Positions 3,674 to 63,636 of a stretch of 64,000 nt of DNA are shown here, one piece after another. The translations under genes were made by a program, and so were the position numbers. The first letter of the stretch is position 1. Each line of letters begins with the position of its first letter. The stretch lies in NCBI GenBank assembly GCA_034722015.1, contig JAYENI010000157.1, positions 11-64,010 on the forward strand, written 5' to 3'. The notes under the pieces are model-generated. The model saw nothing but the letters and a program-made list of their open reading frames with translations, had not been told where the DNA came from and searched no databases. This stretch comes from Pseudomonadota bacterium. Its GTDB lineage: Bacteria > Pseudomonadota > Gammaproteobacteria > JAJDOJ01.

Positions 3674-4276
3674 GTGCCGGAGATTATGTTTCGAAGACTC
3701 GCTCTGGGTGGCCTGTTCGGCGGAGTCGTGATGTTCGTATGGGGGGCGGTGTCGTGGCTTACCCTGCCATGGCATCACACCACGTTGCTGAACTTTTCCG
3801 ACGAGGCAGCCGTGGCGGCGATCATCTCCGACAACGCGCAGCAAAGTGGAATGTACCTCCTGCCCAATCCCGGCAAATTTGCGCCGGGCGCCGACGAAGC
3901 GGAGCAGCTACGCTATTTCGACGACGCCGCCGCGCGAATGAAGCAGGGGCCATTCGTGTTTGTCTCAGTCAAGCGGGAGGGGTCGGACCCTGACAATCCG
4001 GCACCGTTCATCCTGTCTCTCGTCACACGGGTCGTCGCGGCACTGCTGATGACGGGTCTGGTGCTGCTGTCCGCACACAATGGTTACTGGCGTCGCGTCG
4101 CTTTCGTGACTGCGTTGGGAGTACTCACGGGACTGATGGCGACGTTTCCCAGCTGGAACTGGTGGAAATTCGATTCGATGTTCACCCTGGTGAATTTCGC
4201 GGACTACGTGATTCAGTTCCTGCTTGCCGGACTGGTCATCGCGGGAATTACGGGCGACCCGCCGGAGTCGGGTTGA
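3674..4276 (+). CDS. hypothetical inner-membrane protein (approximately 4 TM segments)
   Basis: The ORF has several hydrophobic helices. GTG at 3674 or ATG at 3686 are possible starts. The TGA stop abuts repeat copy 1. Confidence 0.45.
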   Translation: MPEIMFRRLALGGLFGGVVMFVWGAVSWLTLPWHHTTLLNFSDEAAVAAIISDNAQQSGMYLLPNPGKFAPGADEAEQLRYFDDAAARMKQGPFVFVSVKREGSDPDNPAPFILSLVTRVVAALLMTGLVLLSAHNGYWRRVAFVTALGVLTGLMATFPSWNWWKFDSMFTLVNFADYVIQFLLAGLVIAGITGDPPESG

Positions 4277-4436
4277 GGCGATTGCCGGAAAATGACATAC
4301 CGGATTGCGCCGGATTTTCGTTTGTCATCAAGGCGCGACAACAGGCGCATCGTCGAACGATGGAACGGTTGTCGCAACACAGAAGACGAATGAAAAGACA
4401 AGCAAGATGGTATGTCATTTGACAGAAATCGCCTGA
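4273..4436 (-). repeat. MITE-like ~160-bp TIR element, copy 1
   Basis: Termini ...GAGGCGATTGCCGGAAAATGACATACC / GGTATGTCATTTGACAGAAATCGCCT. Internal nested palindrome GTTGCGACAAC...CATCGTTCGACGATG...GTTGTCGCG. Orientation labels are relative to copy 9, taken as +. Confidence 0.85.
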
Positions 4437-4484
4437 GCATCCGTGGCAGATTGTGGAGCCCGATGCAGCAATGGTCTCGGTCGG

Positions 4485-5273
4485 ATGGCGATAGCCTGGT
4501 TCAGGTTCTACGAAGAGTTGAACGACTTTCTGACTCCCGGACGGCGCAAGGTGGCCTTTCGCCACATTTTTGACCGCAGGGCCTCGGTCAAGGACATGAT
4601 CGAGTCGTTCGGCGTGCCCCACACGGAGGTGGATCTGATTCTGGTCAACGGCGAGTCGGCGGGTTTCAACCGTATCGTGCGGGACCACGATCGCGTGAGC
4701 GTCTACCCGGTGTTCGAGTCGCTGGATGTCTCACCACTGCTGCGGCTGCGCGAGCGGCCCTTGCGGCGCACACGGTTCGTCGTGGATTGCAACCTGGGGC
4801 GCCTGGCTCGATATTTGCGCCTTCTGGGGTTCGACACACGCTATGAAAACGATTTTCGGGACGAGGCGGTAGCACGGATATCAGGCGAGGAGGGACGCGT
4901 GTTGCTGACGCGTGACCGACGCCTCCTGCAGCGTCGGATCGTCACCCACGGTATGTTCATTCGCGAAACCGATCCGCGGCGTCAGGTCACCGAGGTCCTG
5001 CGACGACTCGACCTCGGGCGCGACATCTCGCCCTTCACGCGTTGTTCGCGCTGTAACGGACGGCTCGAAGTGGTTGACAAGTCCGAAGTCCTGGAACGTC
5101 TCGAACCGAAGACACGCCGCTACTACCACGTCTTCCGGCGCTGCACCGACTGCGGGCAGATTTACTGGAAGGGCAGTCATCACGACCGCGCGCAACGGTT
5201 GGTGGCGGAATTCCTCGAGACTGAGGGCGGGGATTCCGACGTCGGGCGCAAAGCCCACCCACGGCCCCGATGA
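4485..5273 (+). CDS. Mut7-C RNase domain protein (MoaD/ThiS-like N-terminus, PIN-like nuclease domain, C-terminal Zn ribbon)
   Basis: N-terminal beta-grasp-like segment, then an acidic-residue PIN-like core (VVDCNLGRLARYLRLLGFDT) and C-terminal CSRCNG...CTDCGQ. Start moved to the ATG at 4485 because the longer ORF begins inside repeat copy 1. Confidence 0.6.
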   Translation: MAIAWFRFYEELNDFLTPGRRKVAFRHIFDRRASVKDMIESFGVPHTEVDLILVNGESAGFNRIVRDHDRVSVYPVFESLDVSPLLRLRERPLRRTRFVVDCNLGRLARYLRLLGFDTRYENDFRDEAVARISGEEGRVLLTRDRRLLQRRIVTHGMFIRETDPRRQVTEVLRRLDLGRDISPFTRCSRCNGRLEVVDKSEVLERLEPKTRRYYHVFRRCTDCGQIYWKGSHHDRAQRLVAEFLETEGGDSDVGRKAHPRPR

Positions 5274-6996: not shown

Positions 6997-7005
6997 TCTC
7001 CTGCC

Positions 7006-7770: not shown

Positions 7771-7785
7771 TTCCGGCAATCGCCT
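7771..7785. repeat. TIR remnant (right terminus only)
   Basis: TTCCGGCAATCGCCT matches the right TIR 15/15. Fills the 14-bp gap between convergent mtfA and cysQ. Confidence 0.5.
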
Positions 7786-8609
7786 CAGGTGACCGCGTCG
7801 ATTCGTTGCCGCCAGTTGAAGTCCGGATCGCCGAAGACGACGAAGGAGGGATTTGTCAGGGATTCTTTCGTGTTGTAACGCAGACGCTGAAACTGCAGGT
7901 CGGTCATGCGGCCACCTGCCTCCTCCACGATGCACTGGGCCGCGGCCGTGTCCCATTCGGAGGTTGGCCCGAACCGTGGGTAGATGTCCGCCGTGCCTTC
8001 GGCGACCAGGCAGGATTTGATCGCGCTGCCCATGGGAATCAGGTCGTGCGGGCCCAGCACCTGGAGGAAGACACCGAGCTTTCCGGTTGCGTGCGAACGG
8101 CTGCCCGCGACGACGGGATGCGTCGCGGGTGTCGCGCGGGTGGTCACGGCTGAGTCCGGCCCCTCTCCCGGTCGCTTCCACGCTCCGCCGCCGTTTACTG
8201 CGTGCCAGGTGGTTCCGGTGATCGGTGAATGGATGACCCCGACCACTGCGTCGTGTCCGCTGACCAGCGCAATACTCACGCAGAATTCGCCATTGCCCTT
8301 GATAAATTCCCGGGTCCCGTCCAGGGGATCGACGAGCCAGTAGTGGTCCCATACCGATCGGGTAGCGAATGGACACCTGTCGGACTCCTCGGCCAGGACC
8401 GGGAACCCGTGCGCTGTTGCCGTGAGTCGTTCCACGATGATCTGGTTGGCCGCAAGGTCCGCGGTCGTTACCGGTGTCCGGTCGGCCTTTTCACGGACAG
8501 TGTATTCGCCGTTATAGATGCGGTGGATTTCGTTCCCGGCCGCGATTGCGACGCTGATGGCCTGATCGCGCAGTTCGCCGAGTTCGCGGGTTGGTATGGG
8601 AGGGATCAT
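7785..8609 (-). CDS. cysQ: 3'(2'),5'-bisphosphate nucleotidase CysQ
   Basis: Inositol monophosphatase family motifs (WLVDPLDGTREF, metal-binding Asp residues). Confidence 0.8.
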   Translation of the reverse strand: MIPPIPTRELGELRDQAISVAIAAGNEIHRIYNGEYTVREKADRTPVTTADLAANQIIVERLTATAHGFPVLAEESDRCPFATRSVWDHYWLVDPLDGTREFIKGNGEFCVSIALVSGHDAVVGVIHSPITGTTWHAVNGGGAWKRPGEGPDSAVTTRATPATHPVVAGSRSHATGKLGVFLQVLGPHDLIPMGSAIKSCLVAEGTADIYPRFGPTSEWDTAAAQCIVEEAGGRMTDLQFQRLRYNTKESLTNPSFVVFGDPDFNWRQRIDAVT

Positions 8610-9157: not shown

Positions 9158-9184
9158 GGGGAAAGAAGACTACACCTGTTGAGG

Positions 9185-9868: not shown

Positions 9869-10148
9869 GCGGCGCACGCTGCGATGGAGTGTTCGTCCAC
9901 TTAGGCAATGGGTCACGGTCACGACCGCTCGGCAGTTTGGGTAGATGGGGATTCTGCGGCCCATTACGGCGTCCCGCAACCGCATCAGACCTTCGGTGAG
10001 GCATGGCGAGGGACCCCGTGATCACGGCGATGTCCACCGGGGGCGCCACTTGGTAGACTTTCCCCGCATCGGGCATTGAATACCGCCGGGATGCAGAACG
10101 GCGGACGAGACACAGATACATGGCGCGTGGGCGGCGCGGGATCCCGGG

Positions 10149-10805
10149 ATGATGCTGGACTGGACGAAAGTCGCGACGGTGTTCCTCGATATGGACGGCA
10201 CCCTGCTGGACCTCCATTTCGATAACTATTTCTGGCTCGAGCACATCCCGCTGCGTTACGGCGAAAAGCACGGCCTTGAAAGCGCTGAAGCGCGAGAGGC
10301 GCTGATGCGGAAATACCGTTCGGTCGAGGGGACCCTGCAATGGTATTGCATCGACTACTGGAGCGGGGAACTGGAACTTGATATCACCGCGCTCAAACAG
10401 GAGGTGGCACACAAGATCGCAGTGCATCCGCACGCAGAGCGTTTTCTCGCGGCGGTGAGGGGAAGCGGGCGTCGCCTGATGCTGCTGACCAACGCACACG
10501 GAACCAGCGTTGAGATCAAGTTGCGCAAGACCGAACTTGGACGGTATTTCGACCGCCTGATCGTTTCGCACGATCTGGGGGAACCCAAGGAGAGCGCGGC
10601 GTTCTGGCCGTTGCTACGGGAATATGAGCCGTTCGACCCCAAGAGTGCCCTGCTGGTGGACGACAACCTGTCGGTGCTGCGTGCGGCAGCGGGCAGCGGG
10701 ATCGCATGGACGATAGCGGTGAAACGCCCCGATACCACGCTCGGCGAGAAGGACACGGGAGAGTTTCCCGCAATTTCCGATTTCAGCGAAATCCTGCCGG
10801 ACTAA
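10149..10805 (+). CDS. yrfG: HAD-superfamily hydrolase, YrfG-like GMP/IMP nucleotidase
   Basis: HAD motif I FLDMDGTLLD and motif IV LLVDDN. In enterics yrfG neighbours nudE. The TAA stop is the first 3 nt of repeat copy 2. Confidence 0.7.
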   Translation: MMLDWTKVATVFLDMDGTLLDLHFDNYFWLEHIPLRYGEKHGLESAEAREALMRKYRSVEGTLQWYCIDYWSGELELDITALKQEVAHKIAVHPHAERFLAAVRGSGRRLMLLTNAHGTSVEIKLRKTELGRYFDRLIVSHDLGEPKESAAFWPLLREYEPFDPKSALLVDDNLSVLRAAAGSGIAWTIAVKRPDTTLGEKDTGEFPAISDFSEILPD

Positions 10806-10963
10806 GGCGATTTCTGTCGATTGATATCCCATCCTGTTGGTCTTTTCGTCCGTCTCCTGTGTTGCGACAACCGTTCCATAGTCCAACTATGCGCCTGTTG
10901 TCGCGCCTTGAAGACGAACGAAAAGCCGGCGCAATCCGGTATGTCATTTCCCGGCAATCGCCT
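10803..10963 (+). repeat. MITE-like TIR element, copy 2
   Basis: TAAGGCGATTTCTGTC...GGCAATCGCCT. The first TAA is the yrfG stop codon. Confidence 0.85.
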
Positions 10964-10971
10964 GGCCGGGA

Positions 10972-11426: not shown

Positions 11427-11586
11427 AGGCGATTGCCGGAAAATGGCATACCAGAATGCGCTGAATTTTCGTTCGTATTCAAGGCGCGCCAACTGAAGCA
11501 TAGCAAGCTATGTGACAGTTGGCGCAACGTAGAAGACGGGCGAAAAAACAAGCAGGCTAGTATGTCATTTGACAGAAATCGCCTAA
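11427..11586 (-). repeat. MITE-like TIR element, copy 3
   Basis: AAGGCGATTGCCGGAAAATGGCATACC...GGCTAGTATGTCATTTGACAGAAATCGCCTAA. Confidence 0.85.
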
Positions 11587-11594
11587 GAGCGAAT

Positions 11595-12362
11595 TTATCC
11601 CGCTGCGTCAATCCGGAACTCAAAATTTCGATCGGGTCGCAGGGGTGGATCGTGCGTCCTTTCCGTCATGGTCACCTCGCCGTCGGAGCGGACCATCAGG
11701 AAAGTGGAGCTGCGGGTGCCATACCCGGCGGCGTCAATGAAAACGGGGCCCAGCACCCTTTCGAGTGACAGGCCGACACCGGTATCGGGCAAATCCTCGT
11801 TACGGGGGAACGACCTGTCACCCAGCATGCTGAAGACGGCCTTAGCACTGATCGCTCCCGAGATGATCAATTCCGACAGGGCGGACTTTCCCCTGAGTAC
11901 CTTTGGCCAGGGTGTGTCGAGTTCCCGGTTACTGAGGCCGTAGAGTCCCGTGTCCAGGCGGCGCAGCAGGTCCTTCGGACTATGGTAGTACCAGAGTTCA
12001 TGGGGGTTGCCGGCAAAGAGGCTGAACCCGGCGTAAAACGCCCTTCGGGTTCGAAGCCGTGCCAGAAATTCAGCGGGGGGATCGTCCGATTCGAGAAATT
12101 CCGACACGACGAGACCACGAGAACGGGCATTCGGGGGGGGCGCTATGGACGATCGGAAATTCGTGACCCCCGCGAAGCGCCCATTGCGAGTGATGCCCAG
12201 CCACGTGCCCCCCTTTTCGAGGTCCCGCCCGGCCAGAACGTCCGGCGCGCCGTCGTGAAAACCGAGTCGTGCGGTTGGCCGCGAAACGAATTCGTCCCGG
12301 TTCGCCGCCAGTGCGAGTCGGTATCCGGGGGTAGGGTTCCACGCGAGTATGATCAGGCACAT
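11595..12362 (-). CDS. NRDE-family protein (TANGO2-like, Ntn-hydrolase-type)
   Basis: N-terminal MCLIILAW with Cys2 and a central NRDE-like core. ATG start verified. Flanked on both sides by repeat copies. Confidence 0.65.
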   Translation of the reverse strand: MCLIILAWNPTPGYRLALAANRDEFVSRPTARLGFHDGAPDVLAGRDLEKGGTWLGITRNGRFAGVTNFRSSIAPPPNARSRGLVVSEFLESDDPPAEFLARLRTRRAFYAGFSLFAGNPHELWYYHSPKDLLRRLDTGLYGLSNRELDTPWPKVLRGKSALSELIISGAISAKAVFSMLGDRSFPRNEDLPDTGVGLSLERVLGPVFIDAAGYGTRSSTFLMVRSDGEVTMTERTHDPPLRPDRNFEFRIDAAG

Positions 12363-12420: not shown

Positions 12421-12592
12421 GCAATCGCCTAAGGCGATTTCTGTCAAATGACATACCATCCTGCTTGTCTTTTCGTCCGTCCTCTGTGTTGCGACAACCG
12501 TGACATCGTTCGACGATGTGCCTGTTGTCGCGCCTTGATGACGAACGAAAATCCGGCGCGATCTGGCATGTTATATTCCGGCAATCGCCTAA
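12421..12592 (+). repeat. MITE-like TIR element, copy 4 (with 9-bp extra TIR fragment GCAATCGCC at left end)
   Basis: GCAATCGCCTAAGGCGATTTCTGTCAAATGACATACC...GGCATGTTATATTCCGGCAATCGCCTAA. The terminal CTA supplies the TAG stop of the minus-strand HTH gene. Confidence 0.85.
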
Positions 12593-13029
12593 GCCCGGCG
12601 TTGCGTGTTCGCGATCATCCAGCTGACCAGCGCCTGGAGCACGAGCTTCTGTTCCCTCGTGCAGCCGGAACTGTGCTGAATGGACTCCAGCCTATCCTTC
12701 ATTGACACCACGAGTGACTTGTAGTGCTCCAGTTCGGCACGCGAGTGCTCGACCTCGAGCCGCAGACGACCGACCTCTTCGGCGAGGTTGCGCTTCTGGA
12801 GCCTGATGTCGCCGGGCTGCTTGTAAACCGCAAACCTGCGGTTTCGCGCCATGCGCTCGAGCACGGAGCTGTCTTCCAGTTCGATACCCGGATACGCACC
12901 GAGGAGGTCATCGACCGCTACCTTGCCTTCAAAGGTATGTAGTTGCCCGTCCTGGATCTTGCGTTGTATCTCGCTCCGGCTGACCCCGGCCAGTCGCGCG
13001 GCCCTTGATACGCTGAGGTGATGCATCAT
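12589..13029 (-). CDS. HTH (MerR/excisionase-like) DNA-binding protein with C-terminal coiled coil
   Basis: LSVSRAARLAGVSRSEIQRKIQDGQL HTH, then heptad-rich LQKRNLAEEVGRLRLEVEHSRAELEHYKSL. Start trimmed to ATG 13029. The TAG stop is provided by the terminus of repeat copy 4. Confidence 0.5.
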   Translation of the reverse strand: MMHHLSVSRAARLAGVSRSEIQRKIQDGQLHTFEGKVAVDDLLGAYPGIELEDSSVLERMARNRRFAVYKQPGDIRLQKRNLAEEVGRLRLEVEHSRAELEHYKSLVVSMKDRLESIQHSSGCTREQKLVLQALVSWMIANTQRRA

Positions 13030-13169
13030 GTTTCGACAGCCTGCCTGGGGAGAAACACCCGCTGAATCGCCCGATACCGCGATCACGGTGCGATCCGCCA
13101 CCGATCTACCCATAAGAGATATGGGTCTCGGGGGAGATTATAGGCCGATTGGGATATATAAGGTAGGGG

Positions 13170-13595
13170 TCAGCCTGTCGGTGTCTGGCCGCTGTCAGGC
13201 CCTTGCGTAAGCTGCCAGCTCCAGGCGCAATCCACCTCTGACCGTACCCTGATCAGACCATCGATCCCCTCGTCCACGATGACCTGCAGAGGGCTGCGCC
13301 GCCGGAACCGGCGATGCGGGGAACGCAACCAGATCAGGCCCACCTTGCGATTCAGGGGATACGTCGTACGGAGTGCGTCGGCGATACCGGCCAGGTGTTC
13401 GACCCGTTTGAATATCGCCTCGTCGTCGGGCAGCGCGGCGCTGCCCTGGCGGTATTTTTCCACGTGGCGTGTGCGGGTCTTTTCCGGCAGTGCGAGAACG
13501 GCGATGATGTCCTCGGCGCTCAATCCCCACTCGTCCAGTGTGTGTACAACCGCCTGGCCCAGGGTGCGTCTCTGCTCTTCGGAATAGTCGGTCAT
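13170..13595 (-). CDS. hypothetical protein with DUF2384-like (Xre/MbcA/ParS antitoxin C-terminal) segment
   Basis: C-terminal WLRSPHRRFRRRSPLQVIVDEGIDGLIRVRSEV resembles the W-L-x-x-P-(x)n-P-x-x-l-l-x-x-G-x-x-x-V toxin-binding motif. No RES-domain partner is adjacent. Confidence 0.4.
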   Translation of the reverse strand: MTDYSEEQRRTLGQAVVHTLDEWGLSAEDIIAVLALPEKTRTRHVEKYRQGSAALPDDEAIFKRVEHLAGIADALRTTYPLNRKVGLIWLRSPHRRFRRRSPLQVIVDEGIDGLIRVRSEVDCAWSWQLTQGPDSGQTPTG

Positions 13596-13609
13596 CGTGT
13601 CTGCCCCTC

Positions 13610-13624
13610 GACAGAAATCGCCTC
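13610..13624. repeat. TIR remnant (left terminus, reverse)
   Basis: GACAGAAATCGCCT lies between the 98-aa and 141-aa genes. Confidence 0.45.
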
Positions 13625-13665
13625 AGGTCCCCCGGGTCATTGCACCGGTCGGGACCGGACCCGCG

Positions 13666-13962
13666 TTACTCGGATTCGTCCCTGTTCGTGCCTTTGCCGA
13701 TGCGTGAGATCGGAACGACGGTGGACGACTTCGGTTCGTCGCCAAATCGAGGGCGTTCCTTGATCTCCATGCCGGCTTTCTCGGCGAGTTCACGTTCTCT
13801 CGCCGATATCAGGGCGAAACAGGCGCGTATGTCCTTGATGCACCCCTGGCTCAGCGGATGCCGCAGCCCCGGGTCGGGCGTGGTTTCCCTGACGATCTTC
13901 CCCAGGGTCTTTCGCATGGCGATGAGTATGCGCTGTTCTTTCGATAACGATGGATCACTCAT
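13666..13962 (-). CDS. hypothetical small protein (98 aa)
   Basis: ORF with a verified ATG, same strand and tightly spaced with neighbours. No recognisable motif. Confidence 0.4.
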   Translation of the reverse strand: MSDPSLSKEQRILIAMRKTLGKIVRETTPDPGLRHPLSQGCIKDIRACFALISARERELAEKAGMEIKERPRFGDEPKSSTVVPISRIGKGTNRDESE

Positions 13963-13995
13963 GGGTACGGCCCTTCGGGTGTCTTGCAGCGGCCC

Positions 13996-16141: not shown

Positions 16142-16603
16142 ATGCTGGACGCATTGAGGACACTCTTCTCACCGGACGAGGCTCCCGTCGGCTCAGCCGA
16201 CCGGGAAGACAAGGATTTACCCCTGGCGGCGGCTGCCCTGCTGCTTGAGGTCGGATACGCGGACGCCGAGATACGCGAGGACGAACTCGAGGCCATCTCA
16301 ACGGCATTGCGCAATCGTTTCGGCTTTACCGAGTCGAGCGTACAGACGCTGATCGAGGATGCGCACGAGCAACACCAGGGCGAGCACTCGATGTATCCCT
16401 TTCTGTCGAAGGTCAACAAGGCATTCTCTCCGTCCCGAAAGGTCCACCTCATAGCGGACATGTGGCGGGTTGCCTACGCGGACAGACGGCTGGACAAGCA
16501 CGAGGAACATCGGATTCGCAAGATCTCGGCTCTTCTGCACGTGCCGCACCGCGATTTCATCCGTGCAAAGCTGGAGGTTCGCGAAGAGCTTGGCATCGAC
16601 TAA
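16142..16603 (+). CDS. TerB-family (tellurite resistance TerB-like / DjlA N-domain-like) protein
   Basis: Paired-helix TerB-like pattern with conserved acidic residues (EVGYADAEIREDELEAI). The TAA stop coincides with a TIR remnant. Confidence 0.5.
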   Translation: MLDALRTLFSPDEAPVGSADREDKDLPLAAAALLLEVGYADAEIREDELEAISTALRNRFGFTESSVQTLIEDAHEQHQGEHSMYPFLSKVNKAFSPSRKVHLIADMWRVAYADRRLDKHEEHRIRKISALLHVPHRDFIRAKLEVREELGID

Positions 16604-16612
16604 GGCGATTTC
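16601..16612. repeat. TIR remnant (left terminus)
   Basis: TAAGGCGATTTC. The TAA is the stop codon of the TerB-like gene. Confidence 0.45.
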
Positions 16613-16615
16613 GTG

Positions 16616-16656
16616 TCGAGCACCACGGCTGAAACCTGCGACGCCGCGGTGCTCGG
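16616..16656. terminator. GC-rich hairpin between convergent TerB-like and HU genes (possible bidirectional terminator)
   Basis: TCGAGCACCACGG...CCGCGGTGCTCG, a 12-bp stem with one mismatch. No clear U-tract on either strand. Confidence 0.3.
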
Positions 16657-17076: not shown

Positions 17077-17240
17077 TTAGGCGATTGCCGGAAAATAATG
17101 TACCGGATCACGCCGGATTTTCGTTCGTCTTCAAGGCGCGGTAACAGGCGCATCGTCGAACGATGCAACCGTTGCCACAACGCCGAAGACAGGCGAAAAG
17201 ACAAGTGAGGTGGTACATAATTTGACAGAAATCTCCTTAA
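17077..17240 (-). repeat. MITE-like TIR element, copy 5
   Basis: TTAGGCGATTGCCGGAAAATAATGTACC...GGTACATAATTTGACAGAAATCTCCTTAA. Confidence 0.85.
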
Positions 17241-19377: not shown

Positions 19378-19540
19378 TAAGGCGATTTCTGTCAATTGAC
19401 ATACCATCTTGCTTGTCTTTTCGTCCGTCCTCTGTGTTACGACAATAGTTGCATCGTTCGACGATGCGCCTGTTGTCGCGCCTTGATGACGAACGAAAAG
19501 CCGGCGCGATCCGGTATGTCATTTTCCGGCAATCGCCTAA
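19378..19540 (+). repeat. MITE-like TIR element, copy 6
   Basis: TAAGGCGATTTCTGTCAATTGACATACC...GGTATGTCATTTTCCGGCAATCGCCTAA. Confidence 0.85.
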
Positions 19541-20286: not shown

Positions 20287-20472
20287 GTCCACGGGCTCGT
20301 TCAAACACGGATGGCGACGCGGCGTCGCGTCCCGCCAAATCACAAAAACAATACTATCCTTTATTGAGCAGTCAGGGCGTGAATGCCGGAGGTCCCCGCC
20401 GGGGAGACGGTCCCGGCGCCGCGCGCATGCCTGAATAGATCCCAGGACCATCGCATCCCGAACGACGAGACT

Positions 20473-21507
20473 ATGGACATAACCCAACTACTCGCCTTCT
20501 CCGTCAAGAACAATGCATCGGACCTCCATATCTCGGCCGGTGTGCCGCCGATGATTCGCGTGGACGGGGATGTACGCCGGATCAACGTGCCGGCCATGGA
20601 GCACAAGGAAGTGCACGACATGGTCTATGACATCATGAACGACAAGCAACGCAGGGACTACGAGGAATATCTGGAAACGGACTTCTCGTTCGAGATCCCC
20701 GGGCTGGCGCGATTCAGGGTCAATGCATTTAATCAGAACCGTGGTGCGGGGGTCGTCTTTCGCACCATCCCCACGAAGATCCTGACCCTGGAGGACCTCA
20801 ACTGCCCGAAGATATTCGAGGACATTTCCTCCTACCCCCGAGGTATCGTGCTCGTGACCGGCCCGACGGGTTCGGGAAAGTCCACCACGCTCGCCGCGAT
20901 GATCGACTACAAGAACGACAGCGAATACGGGCATATCCTGACCATCGAGGACCCGATCGAGTTCGTGCACGAAAGCAAGAAATGCCTCGTCAACCAGCGA
21001 GAGGTGCATCGTGACACCCATGGTTTCAACGAGTCGCTCCGGTCCGCCCTGCGCGAGGACCCCGACACGATCCTGGTCGGCGAGCTGCGCGACCTGGAAA
21101 CCATCCGCCTGGCGCTGACCGCGGCCGAAACGGGACACCTGGTCTTCGGTACCCTGCACACCAGTTCAGCGGCAAAGACCATTGACCGCGTGGTCGACGT
21201 ATTTCCCGCGGCCGAGAAATCCATGGTTCGCTCGATGCTTTCCGAGTCGCTGAAAGCCGTCATTTCCCAGACCCTGTGCAAGCGGGTCGGTGGTGGACGG
21301 GTCGCGGCGCACGAGATCATGATCGGTACCCCCGCGATCAGGAACCTGATCCGCGAGGACAAGGTGGCGCAGATGTATTCCGCGATCCAGACCGGGCAGG
21401 CCACCGGGATGCAGACGCTGGACCAGAACCTGAAGGAGCTGATATCCCGTGGCCTGATCAGCCGGGAAGAGGCGCGCCGCAAGGCGGCGCACAAGGAAAC
21501 CTTCTGA
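20473..21507 (+). CDS. pilT: twitching motility ATPase PilT
   Basis: Walker A GPTGSGKST, Asp box, His box, and a PilT-specific C-terminal AIRNLIRE motif. Confidence 0.9.
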   Translation: MDITQLLAFSVKNNASDLHISAGVPPMIRVDGDVRRINVPAMEHKEVHDMVYDIMNDKQRRDYEEYLETDFSFEIPGLARFRVNAFNQNRGAGVVFRTIPTKILTLEDLNCPKIFEDISSYPRGIVLVTGPTGSGKSTTLAAMIDYKNDSEYGHILTIEDPIEFVHESKKCLVNQREVHRDTHGFNESLRSALREDPDTILVGELRDLETIRLALTAAETGHLVFGTLHTSSAAKTIDRVVDVFPAAEKSMVRSMLSESLKAVISQTLCKRVGGGRVAAHEIMIGTPAIRNLIREDKVAQMYSAIQTGQATGMQTLDQNLKELISRGLISREEARRKAAHKETF

Positions 21508-21560
21508 GCGGCACCGGACCCCGTGCCCATCGAATTTGCGTGCAAGCGAGGTAACGAGAT

Positions 21561-22727
21561 ATGGATCGAGACAAGGCAATAGGTTTCATGCACGATCTTC
21601 TCAAGACGCTGATCGGCAGGAACGGTTCGGATATGTTCATCACCGTCGGTGCGCCGCCTTCCATCAAGGTCGATGGAAAGATGACGCCGATTACCAACCA
21701 GGCACTCACGCCGACCCATACCCAGGTCCTGGTGCGCGCGATCATGAACGACAAGCAGGCGCGTGAATTCGACGAGAAGCAGGAGTGTAATTTCGCCATC
21801 AACATGCCCGGCGTCTCGCGCTTCCGCGTCAGTGCGCTCACCCAGCAGGGAAACGCGGGTATGGTGATTCGTGTGATCACCAGCGAGATTCCCGAGTTCG
21901 AGGATCTCAGCCTGCCGAAGATCCTGCGCGACATCGCCATGACCGGGCGTGGCCTGGTGATCTTCGTCGGCGGCACGGGTTCCGGCAAGTCCACTTCCCT
22001 GGCCGCGATGATCGGGTACCGCAACGAGCACAGCTACGGCCACATCATCACCATCGAGGACCCGGTGGAGTATGTGCATCCGCACCGGAACTGCCTGATC
22101 ACCCAGCGGGAGGTTGGCGTCGATACGGAAAGCTACGAGATCGCGCTCAAGAACACCCTGCGACAGGCCCCCGACGTCATTCTGATCGGGGAGATCCGGG
22201 ATCGTGAGACCATGGAGCACGCCGTGGCCTTCGCCGAGACGGGCCACCTCTGCCTTTCCACCCTGCATGCGAACAGCACCAACCAGGCGCTGGACCGGAT
22301 CATCAATTTCTTTCCCGAGGAGCGACGCTCGCAGCTGCTGATGGACCTGTCGCTGAATCTCAAGGCGGTCATCTCGCAGCGCCTGCTTCCGAAGGCCGGC
22401 AGCGAGGGGCGGGTCCCCGCCGTGGAGGTCATGATCAACACGCCGCTGATGTCGGACCTGATCTTCAAGGGCGAAGTGCACGAGATGAAGAGCCTGATCA
22501 AGAAATCCACCGAGCAGGGCATGCAGACCTTCGACCAGCACCTGTTCCAGCTGCTGGAAGAGGGCAAGATCACCTACGAAGACGCCTTGCGCAATGCGGA
22601 CTCGGTCAACGACCTGCGGTTGCGCATCAAGCTCGAGGGGACGTTGTCCAGGCAGGCGGCGCCGGGTGACGCGGCGCTTGGCGGGCTGGAGATGGAGGCC
22701 AAGGCGGAGGAGTCAGGTTTGATCTAG
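21561..22727 (+). CDS. pilU: twitching motility ATPase PilU
   Basis: PilT-family ATPase immediately downstream of pilT. Walker A GGTGSGKST. Has the longer C-terminus typical of PilU. Confidence 0.85.
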   Translation: MDRDKAIGFMHDLLKTLIGRNGSDMFITVGAPPSIKVDGKMTPITNQALTPTHTQVLVRAIMNDKQAREFDEKQECNFAINMPGVSRFRVSALTQQGNAGMVIRVITSEIPEFEDLSLPKILRDIAMTGRGLVIFVGGTGSGKSTSLAAMIGYRNEHSYGHIITIEDPVEYVHPHRNCLITQREVGVDTESYEIALKNTLRQAPDVILIGEIRDRETMEHAVAFAETGHLCLSTLHANSTNQALDRIINFFPEERRSQLLMDLSLNLKAVISQRLLPKAGSEGRVPAVEVMINTPLMSDLIFKGEVHEMKSLIKKSTEQGMQTFDQHLFQLLEEGKITYEDALRNADSVNDLRLRIKLEGTLSRQAAPGDAALGGLEMEAKAEESGLI

Positions 22728-22928
22728 CGGATTTCAATGGTCTGCCGGATGCGCCCGTCTGTCGGCCCGCGGCAGTGGGCATCAGTGAACTTGGGGCTAA
22801 ACCACATACGACCGCAGGTTTGTACCGGAATGCGCACAAGATTGTTGCCGAGGCAGTCACGCGTTACCCGGCGAACTGCCACAAGGGGTGGCGCGAGATG
22901 ACAGGGGCCAGTCCCATTGCGAAGTATC

Positions 22929-23092
22929 TAAGGCGATTACCGGAAAATGACATATCAGATTGCGCCGGATTTTCGTTCGTCATCAAGGCGCGACAACAGG
23001 CACATCGTCGAACGATGGAACGGTTGTCGCAACACAGGAGACGGACGAAAAGACAAACAGGATGGTATGTCAATTGACAGAAATCGCCTAAG
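22929..23092 (-). repeat. MITE-like TIR element, copy 7 (between pilU and the third pilT paralogue)
   Basis: TAAGGCGATTACCGGAAAATGACATATC...GGTATGTCAATTGACAGAAATCGCCTAA. Ends 12 nt before the pilT-paralogue ATG, and the terminal TAAGGA is positioned like an SD. Confidence 0.85.
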
Positions 23093-23104
23093 GAACCCAG
23101 TGCC

Positions 23105-24406
23105 ATGAATATTGCTCCCTATCTCAAACTGATGTCGGACAAGAATGCTTCCGACCTGTTCTTCACGACCGGGGCCCCGGCAAGCGTCAAGCTGGAGGGG
23201 GAGATGCGCCCGGTCAGCCGGAGTGCGCTGGATCCCGGCGTGACGCGGGAGATCGCCTACAGTCTGATGGACGAGGCGCAGATCCACGAGTTCGAGAACA
23301 CCAAGGAGATGAACCTGGGTCTCAGCATCGCCGGAGTGGGCCGATTTCGCGTCAACATTTACCGCCAGCGAGGAGAGGTGTCGCTCGTCATCCGGTTTAT
23401 CAAGTCAATCATCCCCTCGCTGGAGGATCTCTCCCTGCCGCCGGTGCTCAAGGACCTCGTGGGGCACAAGAACGGGTTGATCATCGTGGTTGGTTCGACC
23501 GGCTCCGGCAAGTCCACGACGCTGGCGTCCATGCTCGATTTTCGAAACGCCAACCAGGCGGGCCACATACTGACGATCGAGGACCCGATCGAATATGTGT
23601 TCGCACACAAGAAATCGATCATCGGACAGCGCGAAGTCGGTCTGGACACCCTCTCGTACGACAACGCGCTGCGCGAGGCCATGCGAGAGGCACCGGACCT
23701 GATCATGATCGGGGAGGTGCGTGATCGCAAGACCATGGAGGCGGCAATTTCCTACGCCGACACGGGCCACCTCTGCATGACGACGCTGCACGCCGTCAAC
23801 GCCAATCAGGCGCTCGACAGGGTCATCAACCTGTTTCCGTCGGACGCCAGGCAGCAGATCCTCATGGACCTGTCGCTGAATCTTCGCGGCATCGTCTCAC
23901 AGCGTCTCGTCGTGGGGATGGACGGCAAGCGGGTCCCGGCCGTAGAGGTGCTGGTCAACACCCCCTACAGCTCCGAGCTCATCAAGAAGGGAGAGATAGG
24001 GGCATTGAAAGAGATCATGGAAAAGGGCTCGGTCAACGGCATGCAGACATTCGACCAGTCGCTGCTCGAGCTTTACCAGATGAAACGCATCAATCTCCAG
24101 GCGGCGCTGGGCAATGCGGACTCCAGGGGGGATCTCGAATGGCGTATCAATTTCGGGGGGGGCAAGGACAGCTTCGAGGATTCGGTCGAATCGCTCCAGT
24201 TTCCGGACGACGTCGTCGAGCAGTCGGGCAAGGCGTCGGGTGATGTCGACCCGCACGCGGCGATGGAAAGTGAGGACGATGTGCCCGACCAGGCCATGGA
24301 CACCCTCTCGATGATGCGAAACGCCTTCGGCGAGGAAGATGAAGATGAAGACGAAGACGACGCATCCGAGGAGGGAGACGAAGACAACCTGAATGTCAGA
24401 TCCTGA
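23105..24406 (+). CDS. third PilT/PilU-family retraction ATPase paralogue with acidic C-terminal tail
   Basis: Walker A GSTGSGKST, His box and PilT N-domain are present. Unique ~90-aa C-terminal extension ending EEDEDEDEDDASEEGDEDNLNVRS. Confidence 0.8.
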   Translation: MNIAPYLKLMSDKNASDLFFTTGAPASVKLEGEMRPVSRSALDPGVTREIAYSLMDEAQIHEFENTKEMNLGLSIAGVGRFRVNIYRQRGEVSLVIRFIKSIIPSLEDLSLPPVLKDLVGHKNGLIIVVGSTGSGKSTTLASMLDFRNANQAGHILTIEDPIEYVFAHKKSIIGQREVGLDTLSYDNALREAMREAPDLIMIGEVRDRKTMEAAISYADTGHLCMTTLHAVNANQALDRVINLFPSDARQQILMDLSLNLRGIVSQRLVVGMDGKRVPAVEVLVNTPYSSELIKKGEIGALKEIMEKGSVNGMQTFDQSLLELYQMKRINLQAALGNADSRGDLEWRINFGGGKDSFEDSVESLQFPDDVVEQSGKASGDVDPHAAMESEDDVPDQAMDTLSMMRNAFGEEDEDEDEDDASEEGDEDNLNVRS

Positions 24407-28749: not shown

Positions 28750-28912
28750 TAAGGCGATTGCCGGAAAATGACATACCAGATTGCGCCGGATTATCGTTCA
28801 TCATCAAGGCGCGACATCAGGCGCATCGTCGAACGATGTAACTGTTGTCGCGACACAGAGGACGGACGAAAAGACAAACAAGATGGTATGTCAATTGACA
28901 GAAATCGCCTAA
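28750..28912 (-). repeat. MITE-like TIR element, copy 8 (between ruvX and algH)
   Basis: TAAGGCGATTGCCGGAAAATGACATACC...GGTATGTCAATTGACAGAAATCGCCTAA. Confidence 0.85.
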
Positions 28913-29496: not shown

Positions 29497-29685
29497 CAGG
29501 TGAGTGGTGAATCGGGGAGACCGCGACGCTGCCGCCGGGCAGGGGAAATCCAAATTCGGGTAGCCGTCCGGCGGCCGAAAATCCCGGCGGCGCATCGTGG
29601 GCCCTCCGGAATCCGTATTGAGTAGTATGTGCCCGATCGGGTGATGCTGACAAGCGGCAAAGGGTGGGGCTAGCGATGGCGGAGA

Positions 29686-41600: not shown

Positions 41601-41623
41601 GATCCATCAAGGAGCTGCTCTAG
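35669..41623 (+). CDS. chpA: multi-Hpt hybrid histidine kinase ChpA (CheA-like with C-terminal receiver)
   Basis: 1984 aa. At least four Hpt motifs (HTLKGS/GGARMVG). CheA dimerisation and HATPase domains (RNSISHGLE, GRGVGMDVV), a CheW-like domain, and a terminal receiver (VIDDSITIRK...DIEMPRMDGYEL). Confidence 0.85.
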   Translation: MKASHSVEGNKLSWVKKELDELLKDARLALQDYIEEDHDVYQLDEVVALLRQAGGTLQMVEVKGAAILSREMVDLTIALKEGKVEQRDEAFEQLLSSVMKLQDYLDHVEAGNRDVPAVLLPLLNDMRSARGADPMTGKVLFFPELGDIDPDIDTGTIGDIQADFPALRQTFQVGLLGWFRGDDAKGNLARMLTVTARLYRDAETPAARRLWAASSALTEALAMEGLEAGVTVKNLLGRVDREIRELIDVGEAGVDDALREDLIKNLLYYVAQADERGRFVSAVKAQFSLSQVLPDEQELEKVRERLSGPGAEVLAAVSDAVREDLAEVKDNLEIFFAQGQKNTGDLDAVIMRLHRIADTLGMLGLGTAREKVMNQADIVNQIVSGESGSSEIAIMNMATVVINVESALDDFVSFRSPQDEAAGDVFSTGVLPPAEVLKLRETLVGEVLHDIETIKDSIIEYTSAPDQKERLGAVPVTLDNLSGALVVANAQAVAPLLKSIRDYVSERILEGGETPDPLALEHLADAVSSAEYYIESLKNQGRSIDAILEPGESGMARLGYPVQAVPLSNQEVEEAPSVLDLPYDSTGTFGDVVALEDEVKKTVVPLTPQESASEEMLVVATDTGVGDTKASGAPGDEYRDLVVLEKGADDEILEIFLEEADEVVGQVVELFPEWRRDTDDDETLVTIRRMFHTLKGSGRMVGAGVIAEFSWAYENLINRVLDNTVAPGPELMEAMTSAVDMLPQLVEQIKGEGEPDKDVFFMMAVAHALSKPGTPVPEQEPAGEVAGRGPEGPAEAEEAWEALKEVFGGDVGEVKTEVSEPAAEEGEEPVERKAKDKAKAKGKLKGKAKAKAKPKGKAKAKAKASPVVDETPQPADRVVEVDLQPFAEPPILERPEPEVVSGAEEVELPLVAEGGFDPELLEIFLTEATQHQRDFDSLIQASVKQRARLPLSDELLRAVHTLNGSARTTGVPAIHELCSPLEAYLQSRKQKFATVGEPAFETVEAVATEIGRVLGVLRDAPANVSVDGELRARIDTMAEEMIRSVEGAAAPVEDAAVALPEPPVVTECVMPAATLPGTPDMPGEQDQELAELFLEEATDVMEVGDRALQAWSENADDREAVTELQRQLHTLKGGARMVGYPKSIGDLSHALESMIVEVADGRLSGGREMFDMMHRSFDRISDMLDHARQGQPVYADAALIAEIAGLRGETEPAEAQGPLPDMPGEQDQELAELFLEEATDLMEVGDRALQAWSEKTDDREAVTELQRQLHTLKGGARMVGYPKSIGDLSHALESMIVEVAEGRLSGNSDMFGLLRRAFDGISDMLDQARQGNPVYPAVGILEEIARLRGEEPVFEPAPVQQGPEVQEAPPVAGTPRSPQPSAPQEVIRVKSDLLDNLVNNAGEVNIYHSRLEQQISSFGFNLWELEQTVERLRKQLRQMDIETETQILYRYDQDPQKPGHEADFDPLELDRYSTLQQLSRSLGESVNDLISIKDMLRDVVRDSETLLLQQSRVSTDLQEGLMRTRMVQFAGLAPRLRRVARQTAHELGKKVDVHIMGETNELDRSVLDRMVAPLEHMIRNSISHGLEIPEKRRKAGKPETGNVRISVDRDGAEIVVRVADDGGGIDLEAVRAKAYKQGLIGDSDKLSNHDVMQLILESGFSTAGEVTQIAGRGVGMDVVVSEIKQLNGTLTIDSTRGVGTVFTVRLPFTLAINQALLVQLGEDVFAVPLTSIEGIVRISAEDLGDRYEQEGAIYEYAGNAYELKYLGTVLGLHQPDLSDPSRMYPVLLVRSGDFRAGLQVDGLIGNREVVVKSLGPQVSKARGISGATILGDGRVVLILDVAGLVRVGAGVKFDYISDRPPVVSEVQTIMVIDDSITIRKVTSRMLERNNFAVMTAKDGVDAVSQLQEQKPDLMLMDIEMPRMDGYELATHVRNNPDLKDIPIIMITSRTGQKHRQRAENIGVNKYLGKPYQESDLLGSIKELL
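38909..39754 (+). repeat. intragenic tandem duplication, 2 x 423 bp (141 codons), inside chpA
   Basis: The units start at 38909 and 39332 with ATGCCGGGCGAACAGGACCAGGAACTGGC. They are near-identical over ~300 bp (through GTCGAGGTTGCCGA) and then diverge. Each unit encodes one Hpt domain (LQRQLHTLKGGARMVGYPKSIGDLSHALESMIVEVA). Confidence 0.8.
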
Positions 41624-42224: not shown

Positions 42225-42387
42225 TAAGGCGATTTCTGTCAAATGACATACCATCCTGCTTGTCTTTTCGTCCGTCCCCTGTGTTGCGACAACCGTTCCA
42301 TCGTTCGACTATGCAACTGTTCTCGCGCCTTGAAGGCGAACGAAAATCCGGCGCAATCTGGTACGTCATTTTCCGGCAATCGCCTAA
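42225..42387 (+). repeat. MITE-like TIR element, copy 9 (between chpC and rsmE)
   Basis: TAAGGCGATTTCTGTCAAATGACATACC...GGTACGTCATTTTCCGGCAATCGCCTAA. Confidence 0.85.
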
Positions 42388-57648: not shown

Positions 57649-57808
57649 GGCGATTTCTGTCAAATAACATACCAGCCTGCTTGTCTTGTCGTCCATCTTC
57701 GGCGTTGCGGCAACAGTTGCATAGAGCGACTATGCGCCCGTTGCCGCGCCTTGAAGACGAACGAAAATCCTGCGCAATCTGGTATGTTATTTTCCGGCAG
57801 TCGCCTAA
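57646..57808 (+). repeat. MITE-like TIR element, copy 10 (exactly fills the gap between convergent CPCC gene and bioD)
   Basis: TAAGGCGATTTCTGTCAAATAACATACC...GGTATGTTATTTTCCGGCAGTCGCCTAA. Both flanking stop codons lie in the termini. Confidence 0.85.
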
Positions 57809-58509: not shown

Positions 58510-58649
58510 GTTTCCCGCGTCTTCAGTGGAATCCGCCTCGATCGCGATGGCGTATGCCAATCCAGATTCCAAACCGTGACGTAGTGCCGCGTAACGGGAT
58601 GCTCCCTCCGACGCGTCGTTCGCCATGGTGAGTTCCGTCCCGGGGCGGT

Positions 58650-61744: not shown

Positions 61745-61875
61745 CCCGCTCCGGGCCGTACACGGGGTGGACCGGGGGCCGCGGAATCCGTTCATGCCCC
61801 GGCGGCACCCGGCCGGTGGCTATGTTTCCCGGGAAGTTCGCGCGCGGAGGCCCGGCGGAGCGACGTCCGCAGTGG

Positions 61876-62038
61876 TAAAGCGATTACCGGAAAATGACAT
61901 ACCAGATTTTGCCGGATTTTCGGTCGTCATCAAGGCGCGACAACAGGCGCATCGTCGATCGATGGAACGGTTGTCGCAACACAAAGGACGGACGAAAAGA
62001 CAAGCAAGATGGTATGTCATTTGACAGAAATCGCCTAA
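61876..62038 (-). repeat. MITE-like TIR element, copy 11
   Basis: TAAAGCGATTACCGGAAAATGACATACC...GGTATGTCATTTGACAGAAATCGCCTAA. Contains in-frame ATGs continuous with the downstream DUF1302-like ORF. Confidence 0.85.
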
Positions 62039-63636
62039 GTCCGGGTCTGTTCAGCGGGATTGCCCTGAAGGACAGGCTGTCTGCGTCACCGTTAGGCGAT
62101 TGCCGGAAAATCGCCTTAGGGCTCCTGTTTGTCCTTGCGCTGTTCATGTCCCCTGCGGCCCGCGCGGGGATGGTCGACGAAGACACCTGGCTGGTGAAAG
62201 CGGGCGACACGGTGGAATCCGTATCGCGCGACTTCTATCCCGACGATCCGCAGATGGCGCTGCGGATGCAGCGCGAACTGGTCACCGGTAATCCGCAGAT
62301 CTTTCTCGACGTCGACGAGCCGTCCAGGCTGAACCCCGGGGACCGTCTGACGATACCGACATTTGCCTCCGGTCGCGCCAAAGAGCTCTTCGAGGCAGGG
62401 CTGCCCGAATCGGAACGGGACACCGACACCCTGGCGCCGGCTGCGCCTGTGGCCGCTTCGGAGGATCCCGACGTGGAGACCGGGGCCGCTGTCCCCTTTA
62501 TCTTCAGCGGCGAATGGTCCGGCAGTATCACGCCGGAGATCCAGTACTTCTGGGAGACCCCGAAGGCCGGTCCCGACTACAGCGTGGATCTCTCCCTGGC
62601 ATTTCAGCCGGAGTATTACCTGAGCTGGAAGAATGGCAATCAGGCGTTCAACTTCGTGCCGTTCTTCCGGATCGACCAGCGCGATTCCAACCGGACGCAC
62701 TTCGACGTTCGTGAACTCAGCTGGCTTGCGGTCAGTGGCGACTTCGAGTTCCTGTTCGGGGTCAGCAAGGTCTTCTGGGGGGTGACCGAGTTCGTCCACC
62801 TGGTGGATATCATCAACCAGACCGATGCGGTCGAGAACATCGACGGGGAGGAAAAGCTCGGCCAGCCCATGGCCCGGCTGATCTGGCTGCAGGACTGGGG
62901 ATCGCTTCAATTTTTCGTGCTGCCCTATTTTCGCGAGCGGACCTTCCCGGGGCCGGATGCGAGGCTGCGTACGGTGATACCCGTCGATACCGGCCAGACG
63001 CAGTTCGAGTCGGGGGCGAAGAACTGGCACGTGGATTTCGCCGTCCGCGGTACGACCATTCTGGGTCCGGTCGATGCCGCCCTGTCGCAGTTCGTCGGGA
63101 CCAGCCGCGATCCCGAATTTCTCCCCGGAGCGAACGCTGCCGGCCAGCCCGTGCTGATCCCGCGTTACAACCAGATGGCGCAGACAGGGCTGGAACTCCA
63201 GTCCATCCTCGGTGACTGGTTGTGGAAGTTCGAGGGGATCTACCAGAACAATCCGGTGGAGGATTTTTTCGCGGCCGTTGGGGGGTTCGAATACACGCTG
63301 GTCGGCATCTTCAGTTCCGCGATCGATCTCGGCATCGTCAGTGAGTACACTTACGATGGCCGCACGGAACGTCTCGTCTCGCCCTTCGACAACGATGTGT
63401 TTGTCGGAATGCGCCTGGCCTTCAACGACACGCAGAGTACGGAGATCCTGGCCGGCGGGTCCATCGACCTGACAACGGTCGCACGCACCTTCCGGGTTGA
63501 GGCCAGCCGGCGGTTCGGAGACAGCTGGAAGCTCGATCTCGAACTGCAGATCTTCGACAACGTCAGCGAGAAAGACCCGCTTTTCGGTCTGCAGGACGAC
63601 GATTTCGTGCGTCTGGATTTCGGCTATTTCTTCTGA
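62011..63636 (+). CDS. putative outer-membrane beta-barrel protein (DUF1302-like) with LysM-like N-domain
   Basis: Hydrophobic signal-like segment IALGLLFVLALFMSPAARA, then WLVKAGDTVESVSRDFY (LysM-like), then alternating aromatic beta-strand pattern and C-terminal FGYFF. The start is uncertain: the only in-frame ATGs upstream of the hydrophobic segment (62011, 61894) lie inside repeat copy 11. Confidence 0.5.
   Translation, partial: GMSFDRNRLSPGLFSGIALKDRLSASPLGDCRKIALGLLFVLALFMSPAARAGMVDEDTWLVKAGDTVESVSRDFYPDDPQMALRMQRELVTGNPQIFLDVDEPSRLNPGDRLTIPTFASGRAKELFEAGLPESERDTDTLAPAAPVAASEDPDVETGAAVPFIFSGEWSGSITPEIQYFWETPKAGPDYSVDLSLAFQPEYYLSWKNGNQAFNFVPFFRIDQRDSNRTHFDVRELSWLAVSGDFEFLFGVSKVFWGVTEFVHLVDIINQTDAVENIDGEEKLGQPMARLIWLQDWGSLQFFVLPYFRERTFPGPDARLRTVIPVDTGQTQFESGAKNWHVDFAVRGTTILGPVDAALSQFVGTSRDPEFLPGANAAGQPVLIPRYNQMAQTGLELQSILGDWLWKFEGIYQNNPVEDFFAAVGGFEYTLVGIFSSAIDLGIVSEYTYDGRTERLVSPFDNDVFVGMRLAFNDTQSTEILAGGSIDLTTVARTFRVEASRRFGDSWKLDLELQIFDNVSEKDPLFGLQDDDFVRLDFGYFF
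62092..62118. repeat. 27-bp TIR-only mini-copy (abutted termini, no internal region)
   Basis: TTAGGCGATTGCCGGAAAATCGCCTTA, i.e. left TIR fused to right TIR. It lies 53 bp after copy 11 and inside the 5' region of the DUF1302-like ORF. Confidence 0.6.

Follow-up and report, generated by a model that had tools for sequence, protein, structure and literature searches.

The stretch of DNA analysed here, referred to as the window, comprises 64,000 nucleotides of contig JAYENI010000157.1 from the assembly GCA_034722015.1 of a Pseudomonadota bacterium, and it harbours a family of short repeats with inverted ends that lie dispersed between the genes. An earlier reading of the sequence, the original prediction, had described these repeats as a high-density, non-autonomous family resembling MITEs (miniature inverted-repeat transposable elements), a description that the eleven copies, their conserved ends, the target duplications and an empty site reported below bear out.

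The window is ordinary core chromosome of a bacterium with a GC content of about 60%, and its cumulative GC skew climbs monotonically throughout. Pfam scans of about 50 open reading frames (ORFs) returned only housekeeping genes, comprising proC, yggT, a YggS-like gene, three PilT/PilU-like ATPase genes, pyrB, pyrC, pyrR, an AlgH-like gene, gshB, a PilJ/ChpA chemosensory cluster, metK, ahcY, metF, rsmE, tkt, gap, pgk, pyk, fba, amtB and an MMPL transporter gene. The MetK protein encoded here is 82-87% identical to proteins from metagenome-assembled genomes (MAGs) of Chromatiaceae, Sedimenticola and Thiosymbion. Neither a transposase nor a recombinase nor a RAYT/Y1 enzyme was found among the approximately 50 window ORFs scanned, in line with the earlier view that the elements are non-autonomous, and ARAGORN detected no tRNA or tmRNA genes in the window.

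Copies and architecture of the repeat

A search for the end motif GGCGATT-N10-GACATACC with at most two mismatches yielded 20 matches in the window, against 0.14 expected from shuffled sequences. These matches represent the two ends of each of 10 copies; one further copy (17080-17236), whose ends are more diverged, was recovered by repeat search and nhmmer and not by the end motif. With a profile built from the window copies, nhmmer returned exactly 11 full-length copies in 64 kb, or approximately one per 5.8 kb; in six of them the GCCGGAAAAT arm comes first on the + strand, the other five being inverted. When the copies are aligned in one orientation, the element measures 157 bp without the duplicated target, and pairwise identity among the window copies averages 86% (range 76-93%). 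Elements account for 2.8% of all window positions and for about 19% of the non-coding ones. The full-length copies, the mini-copies and the solo ends are as follows.

4277..4433, + strand: full copy 1, 157 bp, flanked by TGA (4274-4276) and TGA (4434-4436)
10806..10962, - strand: full copy 2, flanked by TAA (10803-10805) and TGG, a decayed repeat; between convergent genes
11428..11583, + strand: full copy 3, 156 bp, flanked by CAA and TAA
12433..12589, - strand: full copy 4, flanked by TAA and TAA; adjoins an older end remnant (12421-12429)
17080..17236, + strand: full copy 5, the most diverged, flanked by TTA and TTA
19381..19537, - strand: full copy 6, flanked by TAA and TAA; between the YggS-like (Ala_racemase_N) gene and the P5C reductase gene proC
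22932..23088, + strand: full copy 7, flanked by TAA and TAA; between two PilT/PilU-like ATPase genes
28753..28909, + strand: full copy 8, flanked by TAA and TAA; downstream of the algH-like gene (28927-29595, - strand)
42228..42384, - strand: full copy 9, flanked by TAA and TAA on the + strand; between the convergent CheW-like and rsmE genes
57649..57805, - strand: full copy 10, flanked by TAA and TAA; downstream of amtB
61879..62035, + strand: full copy 11, flanked by TAA and TAA
62092..62118, + strand: mini-copy of 27 bp, consisting of TTA, the 21-bp core GGCGATTGCCGGAAAATCGCC and TTA
3493..3518, - strand: degenerate second mini-copy, consisting of TAA, GCCGATGTCTGTCAATCGCC and TAA; derived from the other arm type
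7771..7787, unstranded: solo end remnant, TTCCGGCAATCGCC followed by TCA
12421..12429, unstranded: solo end remnant, GCAATCGCC, immediately next to the TAA of copy 4
13608..13625, unstranded: solo end remnant, TCGACAGAAATCGCC followed by TCA
16601..16617, unstranded: solo end remnant, TAA followed by GGCGATTTCGTGTC

The eleven full-length copies in both orientations, the 27-bp mini-copy composed of terminal repeats only and the four or more end remnants that had been proposed were all located, together with the second, degenerate mini-copy. Read from the sequence, deleting the part of a full copy that lies between two short direct repeats, GAAAAT and GAAAT, would leave the 21-bp core of the mini-copy.

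The element proper runs from GGCGATT to AATCGCC (GGCGATT…AATCGCC), and the outermost T(A/T)A, formerly assigned to the terminal repeat, is in fact the duplicated target and lies outside the element. The terminal inverted repeats of about 25 bp have the form GGCGATT-(GCCGGAAAAT or TCTGTCAAAT)-GACATACC, that is, 7 and 8 identical positions enclosing a block of 10 nt, fixed but not the same at both ends; an autonomous parent would be expected between GGCGATTGCCGGAAAATGACATACC and GGTATGTCATTTGACAGAAATCGCC. Across 26 copies from the window and 14 further loci, which also formed the alignment used for covariation, conservation amounts to 96-97% in the terminal 17 nt versus 87.5% in the interior. 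The 10-nt block, distinct at each end, is nearly invariant from copy to copy, as would be expected if the two ends of the element went back to the unlike left and right termini of a parental insertion sequence (IS). The element has no coding capacity and is well below 500 bp in size; the reading frames in it merely yield short translations of the repeat itself, as had been said earlier of the recurring peptides among the predicted ORFs.

All copies sit between ORFs with Pfam support or coding-like GC content at third codon positions, as had been stated for the family from the start. Coding sequence covers about 85% of the window, and 223 of the 303 free TWA sites (W being A or T) fall within it, yet all 12 insertions with target duplications (12/12) are intergenic. 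At the level of individual junctions, the Mut7-C gene begins at 4443, just beyond copy 1; the stop codon of an NRDE/TANGO2 gene (11595-12362, - strand) is followed 8 bp downstream by copy 3; and the right junction of copy 7 (TAAGGAAC…) is located 13 bp ahead of an ATG at 23105.

Target duplication, empty sites and the probable type of transposase

In the orientation of the window, the element is arranged as T-N-A, GGCGATT … AATCGCC, T-N-A, with deviating flanks at copy 2 (TGG, a decayed repeat) and copy 3 (CAA). Among 34 complete copies from the window and the fetched loci, perfect 3-bp direct repeats flank 21 (TAA in 12, TTA in 7 and TGA in 2), and in a further 7 the flanking triplets agree at two of three positions; the next triplet outwards, used as a control, is identical in one of the 34. 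A C directly precedes the left repeat in 18/34 copies and a G directly follows the right repeat in 18/34, and the target consensus is a near-palindromic C-TWA-G. Read on the + strand, the triplet is TAA at nine of the ten TWA-duplicated sites and TTA at one, whatever the orientation of the element (4274-62038). The cumulative GC skew of this strand also rises throughout. The TAA excess (about p = 0.02) could stem from stop codons on the + strand, from an effect of the replication strand or from chance.

An exact empty site was found on a contig from the JGI collection (L180), which was reached via a MetK homologue of 97% amino-acid identity and whose DNA is 93% identical to the window over approximately 11 kb. 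Between rsmE and the CheW-like gene, this contig reads …CTTCTAGCGTGCCG-TCA-CCTTACGCCCGGAACGG… (shorter excerpt GCGTGCCG-TCA-CCTTACGCCCGG), where the window at copy 9 reads …CTTCTAGCGTGCCG-TTA-[157 bp]-TTA-GCTTTCGCCCGGAACGG… (shorter excerpt GCGTGCCG-TTA-[157 bp]-TTA-GCTTTCGCCCGG). The filled site (copy 9, 42228-42384) and the empty site differ in length by 160 bp, the sum of 157 and 3, and we therefore conclude that the element is or was mobile.

A more distant relative (L176-L179), whose NRDE/TANGO2 gene is 70% identical in amino acids to that of the window, provides a second comparison. Downstream of this gene, the relative's element (L178) sits on the TGA stop codon, and that of the window, copy 3, at a TTA 8 bp further. 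The two insertions are 11 bp apart, and in one genome the shared spacer ATTCGCTC is found on the right-hand side of the element, in the other on its left; they are therefore independent insertions, each representing the empty site of the other. Upstream of NRDE/TANGO2, the relative (L176) has no element in the intergenic region orthologous to that of copy 4, with the flanking gene being 86% identical in amino acids. Presence and absence of the repeat are hence polymorphic at orthologous sites, as seen at the empty site of copy 9 and in the separate insertions next to NRDE/TANGO2.

Several insertions coincide exactly with stop codons, because TAA and TGA serve as both target and stop. Such is the case for the TGA of ORF 3674-4276 at the left of copy 1, the TAA (10803-10805) of the HAD hydrolase ORF 10149-10805 at copy 2, the TAA of remnant 16601-16617, which ends the TerB ORF 16142-16603, the TCA of remnant 7771-7787, which is the - strand TGA stop of the inositol monophosphatase ORF 7785-8609, and the element of the distant relative described above. 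ORF 12589-13113 (- strand) ends at copy 4 in a TAG stop codon composed of two duplicated bases and the first G of the element. As we read it, the duplication regenerates the stop codon, and insertions at stop codons therefore cost little. Selection against insertions within genes, rather than true stop-codon targeting, could explain this pattern equally well. Copy 4 went into a TAA that already flanked an older remnant (12421-12432); the junction of duplication and element, C-TAA-GG, restores the favoured target and would thereby promote further insertions at this spot.

Given the terminal repeats, the fixed-length duplication, the empty site, the size variants described below and the decayed remnants, the family is best explained as a MITE. 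We consider it highly likely that the repeats are non-autonomous, TWA-duplicating MITEs mobilised in trans by a DDE transposase of the IS5 superfamily. The assignment to this superfamily, with the IS1031 and IS427 groups in particular, is suggested by three features, namely the 3-bp TNA duplication, a 5-bp target that is palindromic, and ends of the form GG…CC; the duplicated triplets counted above and the single TCA in the empty site all have the TNA form. In eukaryotes, these groups have relatives in PIF/Harbinger, by which Tourist MITEs are mobilised. GG termini and a CTWAG-type target also fit the IS5 superfamily (cf. the ISfinder family table), and maize PIF and the Tourist-like MITEs use the target CWCTTAGWG and duplicate TTA. 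Three-bp duplications are produced by IS5 and PIF/Harbinger elements (PMC4122938), three-nucleotide recognition has been described for the IS1031 group (PMC2516522), and the general features of MITEs have been reviewed (PMC10969869).

Following this assignment, a DDE transposase encoded elsewhere in the genome would bind both ends of the element, cut the target at C-TWA-G with a stagger of 3 nt and join the element in, whereupon gap repair would duplicate TWA. Insertions survive only between genes, and the palindromic element is probably either co-transcribed into mRNAs as a stable stem-loop or extruded as a cruciform that unites both ends. As is known for ERIC and Correia, the repeats may plausibly also influence how stable mRNAs are or how they are processed.

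The same duplications bear on the kind of enzyme that had been proposed earlier, namely IS630/Tc1 or an IS200/IS605 or RAYT transposase. According to the former proposal, the repeats would be MITEs of an IS630/Tc1-mariner-type transposase with TA duplication, comparable to Correia, RUP and ERIC, and indeed their size, terminal-repeat length and hairpin resemble those of Correia and ERIC, and all duplications start with T and end with A. However, reading the junctions as TA-AGGCG…CGCCT-AA results in an inconsistent right flank (AA or TA) and asymmetric ends, whereas the 3-bp reading is perfect in 21 of the 34 copies, the TGA cases included, and the 160-bp difference between filled and empty site demands 157 plus 3. 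A duplication of 3 bp argues against IS630/Tc1 (TA) as well as against IS200/IS605 or RAYT (none), so that both proposals are disfavoured, and we regard an IS630/Tc1 origin as very improbable. An IS200/IS605-derived palindrome was also considered and is contradicted by the terminal repeats, the duplications and the insertion both ways round relative to the central base of the target.

The hairpin and its compensatory changes

Folding of one copy as RNA gave a single long hairpin over the full length of the element. The strand with the GCCGGAAAAT arm first reached a minimum free energy of -66.8 kcal/mol (z = -8.0), and the opposite strand -58.7 kcal/mol (z = -5.9), which is weaker by 8 kcal/mol. 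It had been predicted that, owing to an internal palindrome, a transcript of either strand can form one long hairpin; the palindrome is indeed present, and both strands do fold accordingly. The covariation that had been suggested as a check was found as well: in the alignment of 26 copies, the consensus hairpin has 44 pairs with 95.5% of cells paired, and compensatory double changes occur in 13 of the 44, for example CATCG/CGATG versus CATAG/CTATG, or A-U versus G-C or C-G in the GCGCGACAAC stem. None of 500 shuffles (0/500) attained the observed pairing and compensation, and sliding the partners by 1-3 columns left 29-44% paired. The strand that begins with the GCCGGAAAAT arm shows 65 G:U pairs against 22 A:C mismatches, or 42 against 22 after subtraction of one fixed pair.

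A covarying hairpin recalls REPIN or REP-type repeats, which would be moved as single-stranded DNA by a RAYT (Y1, IS200/IS605-like) enzyme that recognises the hairpin instead of terminal repeats. Besides the strong covariation over the full-length hairpin, the high density of about one copy per 5.8 kb and the strictly intergenic location in both orientations are in accordance with such repeats. REP/REPIN and IS200/IS605 insertions, though, are not accompanied by a target duplication, and the clear 3-bp duplications and the clean empty site with a single triplet speak against them, as do the 25-bp terminal repeats being the best-conserved part of the element, the lack of a GTAG-type REP head at the ends and of any Y1 transposase encoded in the window. 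A REPIN-type origin is thus extremely improbable.

Alternatively, the repeats might mainly be functional RNA or cis-regulatory hairpins, either dispersed small-RNA genes or mRNA punctuation, which are under host selection and for which mobility was only the origin. This notion draws on the 13 compensated pairs, the excess of G:U over A:C, the better folding by 8 kcal/mol of the strand with the GCCGGAAAAT arm first, the position of several copies exactly at stop codons or operon junctions, and the documented effects of ERIC and Correia on mRNA (PMC10969869). Nevertheless, the orientation to the flanking transcription is mixed, five copies being sense, four antisense and two between convergent genes, so that a strand-specific RNA role is unsupported. 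A scan for promoters and terminators revealed no consistent full promoter (sigma-70) or intrinsic terminator in the element, and Rfam has no match. Moreover, presence is polymorphic between genomes that are 93% identical, the decayed remnants and mini-copies indicate that many copies are not maintained, and arm-to-arm correction of the palindrome during replication could also yield compensatory patterns. Taken together, host function as the main explanation appears quite improbable.

The right arm of every copy contains a perfect, outward-facing TTGACA 9 bp from the tip (e.g., 23070-23075) that is absent from the left arm; no -10 box partnering it is consistent across copies. Hybrid promoters with a flanking -10 box are possible at some sites, none of them consistent. 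An IHF site, WATCAANNNNTTR, was compared by eye with the consensus and did not match.

Several observations weigh against the interpretation as MITEs mobilised by an IS5-type transposase. We infer the link to such an enzyme solely from the target duplication, the target sequence and the termini, and an autonomous element bearing the same ends did not turn up in the window, the fetched loci or the PLSDB plasmids. When a parent IS was sought as family ends paired at a distance of 400-4000 bp in the window and the fetched loci, only MITE-MITE pairs or chance matches were obtained. In one locus (L109), element positions 2-60 are followed by unrelated sequence, whose translation, judged by eye, resembles a transporter fragment rather than a transposase. 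The mixed orientation of the copies to the flanking transcription is to be counted here as well. Furthermore, the compensatory changes in the interior are not required by simple binding of a transposase, and given that a cut-and-paste MITE of a DDE enzyme has no obvious need for an internal palindrome, the compensation hints at an extra constraint. The hairpin may have been kept as a folded transposition substrate, by host selection on RNA hairpins or through mechanical arm-to-arm correction of the palindrome. That the hairpin itself is selected, with the family not being a plain deletion derivative of an IS, seems unlikely to us but deserves mention; the hairpin would then act as a folded (cruciform or single-stranded) transposition substrate, or copies located at stop codons and operon junctions would have been recruited as RNA stem-loops that determine mRNA boundaries and decay. 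If this held true, a C-TAA-G target that regenerates stop codons would make such insertions nearly cost-free.

Surroundings, distribution and related families

Among the genes next to the copies, three tandem paralogous PilT/PilU-type ATPase genes (20383-24406, T2SSE domain) have an unusually high third-position GC of 0.81-0.85; they are the source of the repeat families D6 and D7, and a MITE lies between the second and the third. Within the ChpA-like histidine kinase gene (35669-41623, 1984 aa), a 300-nt direct repeat (38902-39624), 88% identical and 423 nt apart, is likely to represent some of the four Hpt-domain matches that Pfam gives for the gene. In the region 13170-13995, an ORF for an Xre-like antitoxin (13170-13595) is found beside a small ORF (13666-13995), the spacer between them containing the remnant of an element end; the two ORFs may constitute a toxin-antitoxin pair.

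The distribution of the family was assessed by exact-pattern scans of genome and metagenome contigs followed by nhmmer, and the following counts refer to the matches listed. True copies among them were present in a MAG named 'Chromatiaceae bacterium' (L002, a full copy), in a 'Pseudomonadota bacterium' MAG (L001), in a Competibacteraceae MAG as short variants (L003, L004), and in at least approximately 25 JGI metagenome contigs, often at contig ends. The pattern GGCGATT-N10-GACATACC with its 15 specified bases is too loose, as about three quarters of the 120 listed metagenome loci were chance matches according to nhmmer, and all 51 pattern matches in viral contigs were likewise chance, leaving no true copy there. 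The element occurs in size variants of about 60-90 bp (L004, L072, L079), 157 bp and about 224-238 bp (L056, L058, L061, L067), the longer ones having an additional left-arm module of about 80 bp. The longer subfamily maps to positions 387-621 of L056, 724-959 of L058, 422-645 of L061, 398-635 of L067 and about 960-1146 of L046. The module (GTGAACTGCGAAGCAGTGAACGGCTTGGGCAGGAAGCCCAAGACC…) forms its own small hairpin and may be a nested insertion or captured sequence.

No Rfam family matched any part of the whole window at gathering thresholds, and one copy searched at E<=10 gave only chance-level microRNA matches (E = 3.6-5.7). Searches of the PLSDB plasmids with the whole element and with each 64-69-nt end (E<=10) produced chance matches only (E>=0.5), and no match emerged from the literature, whether it was searched for the end sequences or for Competibacter MITEs. 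The family, which had not been recognised at the outset either, is therefore previously unnamed as far as the searched resources show, whereas the class of bacterial repeat to which it belongs is well known. Copies with conserved ends thus occur well outside the window, and no known family in the resources searched matched them.

With the IS5 superfamily (IS1031/IS427) and with PIF/Harbinger and Tourist-like MITEs, the family shares the 3-bp TNA duplication, mostly TAA or TTA, in a short palindromic target, terminal inverted repeats starting with GG, and short non-coding derivatives that outnumber autonomous copies (PMC4122938, PMC2516522). It is linked to those systems by its signature alone, as no transposase gene with these ends was found and there is no similarity to any IS in PLSDB, and its host is an uncultured gammaproteobacterium. 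The Correia elements (NEMIS) of Neisseria are comparable in that they measure about 100-160 bp, have terminal repeats of about 26 bp, are intergenic at approximately one per 5-10 kb, number in the hundreds, are co-transcribed into mRNA hairpins, and comprise subtypes differing by internal deletions, similar to the size variants observed here (PMC10969869). In contrast, Correia elements have a TA (2 bp) duplication, an IHF site and defined promoters, whereas the duplication here is 3 bp, a full sigma-70 promoter is missing, and the sequence is unrelated. ERIC/IRU of Enterobacteriaceae and YPAL of Yersinia are likewise imperfect palindromes of 127-170 bp, intergenic in either orientation, giving rise to hairpin RNA and reaching up to about 700 copies per genome (PMC10969869), but they are unrelated in sequence and duplicate TA instead of TWA. 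REPINs and REP sequences with their RAYT are also dense, intergenic and hairpin-forming, with pairing kept by compensatory change; they are Y1-linked and do not have the architecture of terminal repeats and duplications that, together with the empty site, is demonstrated here. The structural likeness to Correia, ERIC and REPIN repeats that had been noted earlier thus stands for Correia and ERIC with respect to size and hairpin, but is confined to hairpin and density in the case of REPINs.

The copies located at the ends of metagenome contigs (L001, L021, L033, L102, L105, L117) suggest that these repeats break assemblies of uncultured Chromatiaceae- or Sedimenticola-like Gammaproteobacteria. 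In addition, they create spurious ORFs and false gene starts. The ORF starts at 61894 (an ATG inside copy 11) and 11427 (a TTG, which is the CAA flanking copy 3 read on the opposite strand) stem from the element or its flank and are probably false. A consensus or profile for masking is directly useful to annotation. Since dense hairpin MITEs are well known in bacteria, the general picture remains unchanged. With its empty site, a target overlapping with stop codons and a compensated hairpin, the family nonetheless represents a clean bacterial example of a Tourist-like, TWA-duplicating MITE and a reasonable system for asking why MITEs are palindromic.

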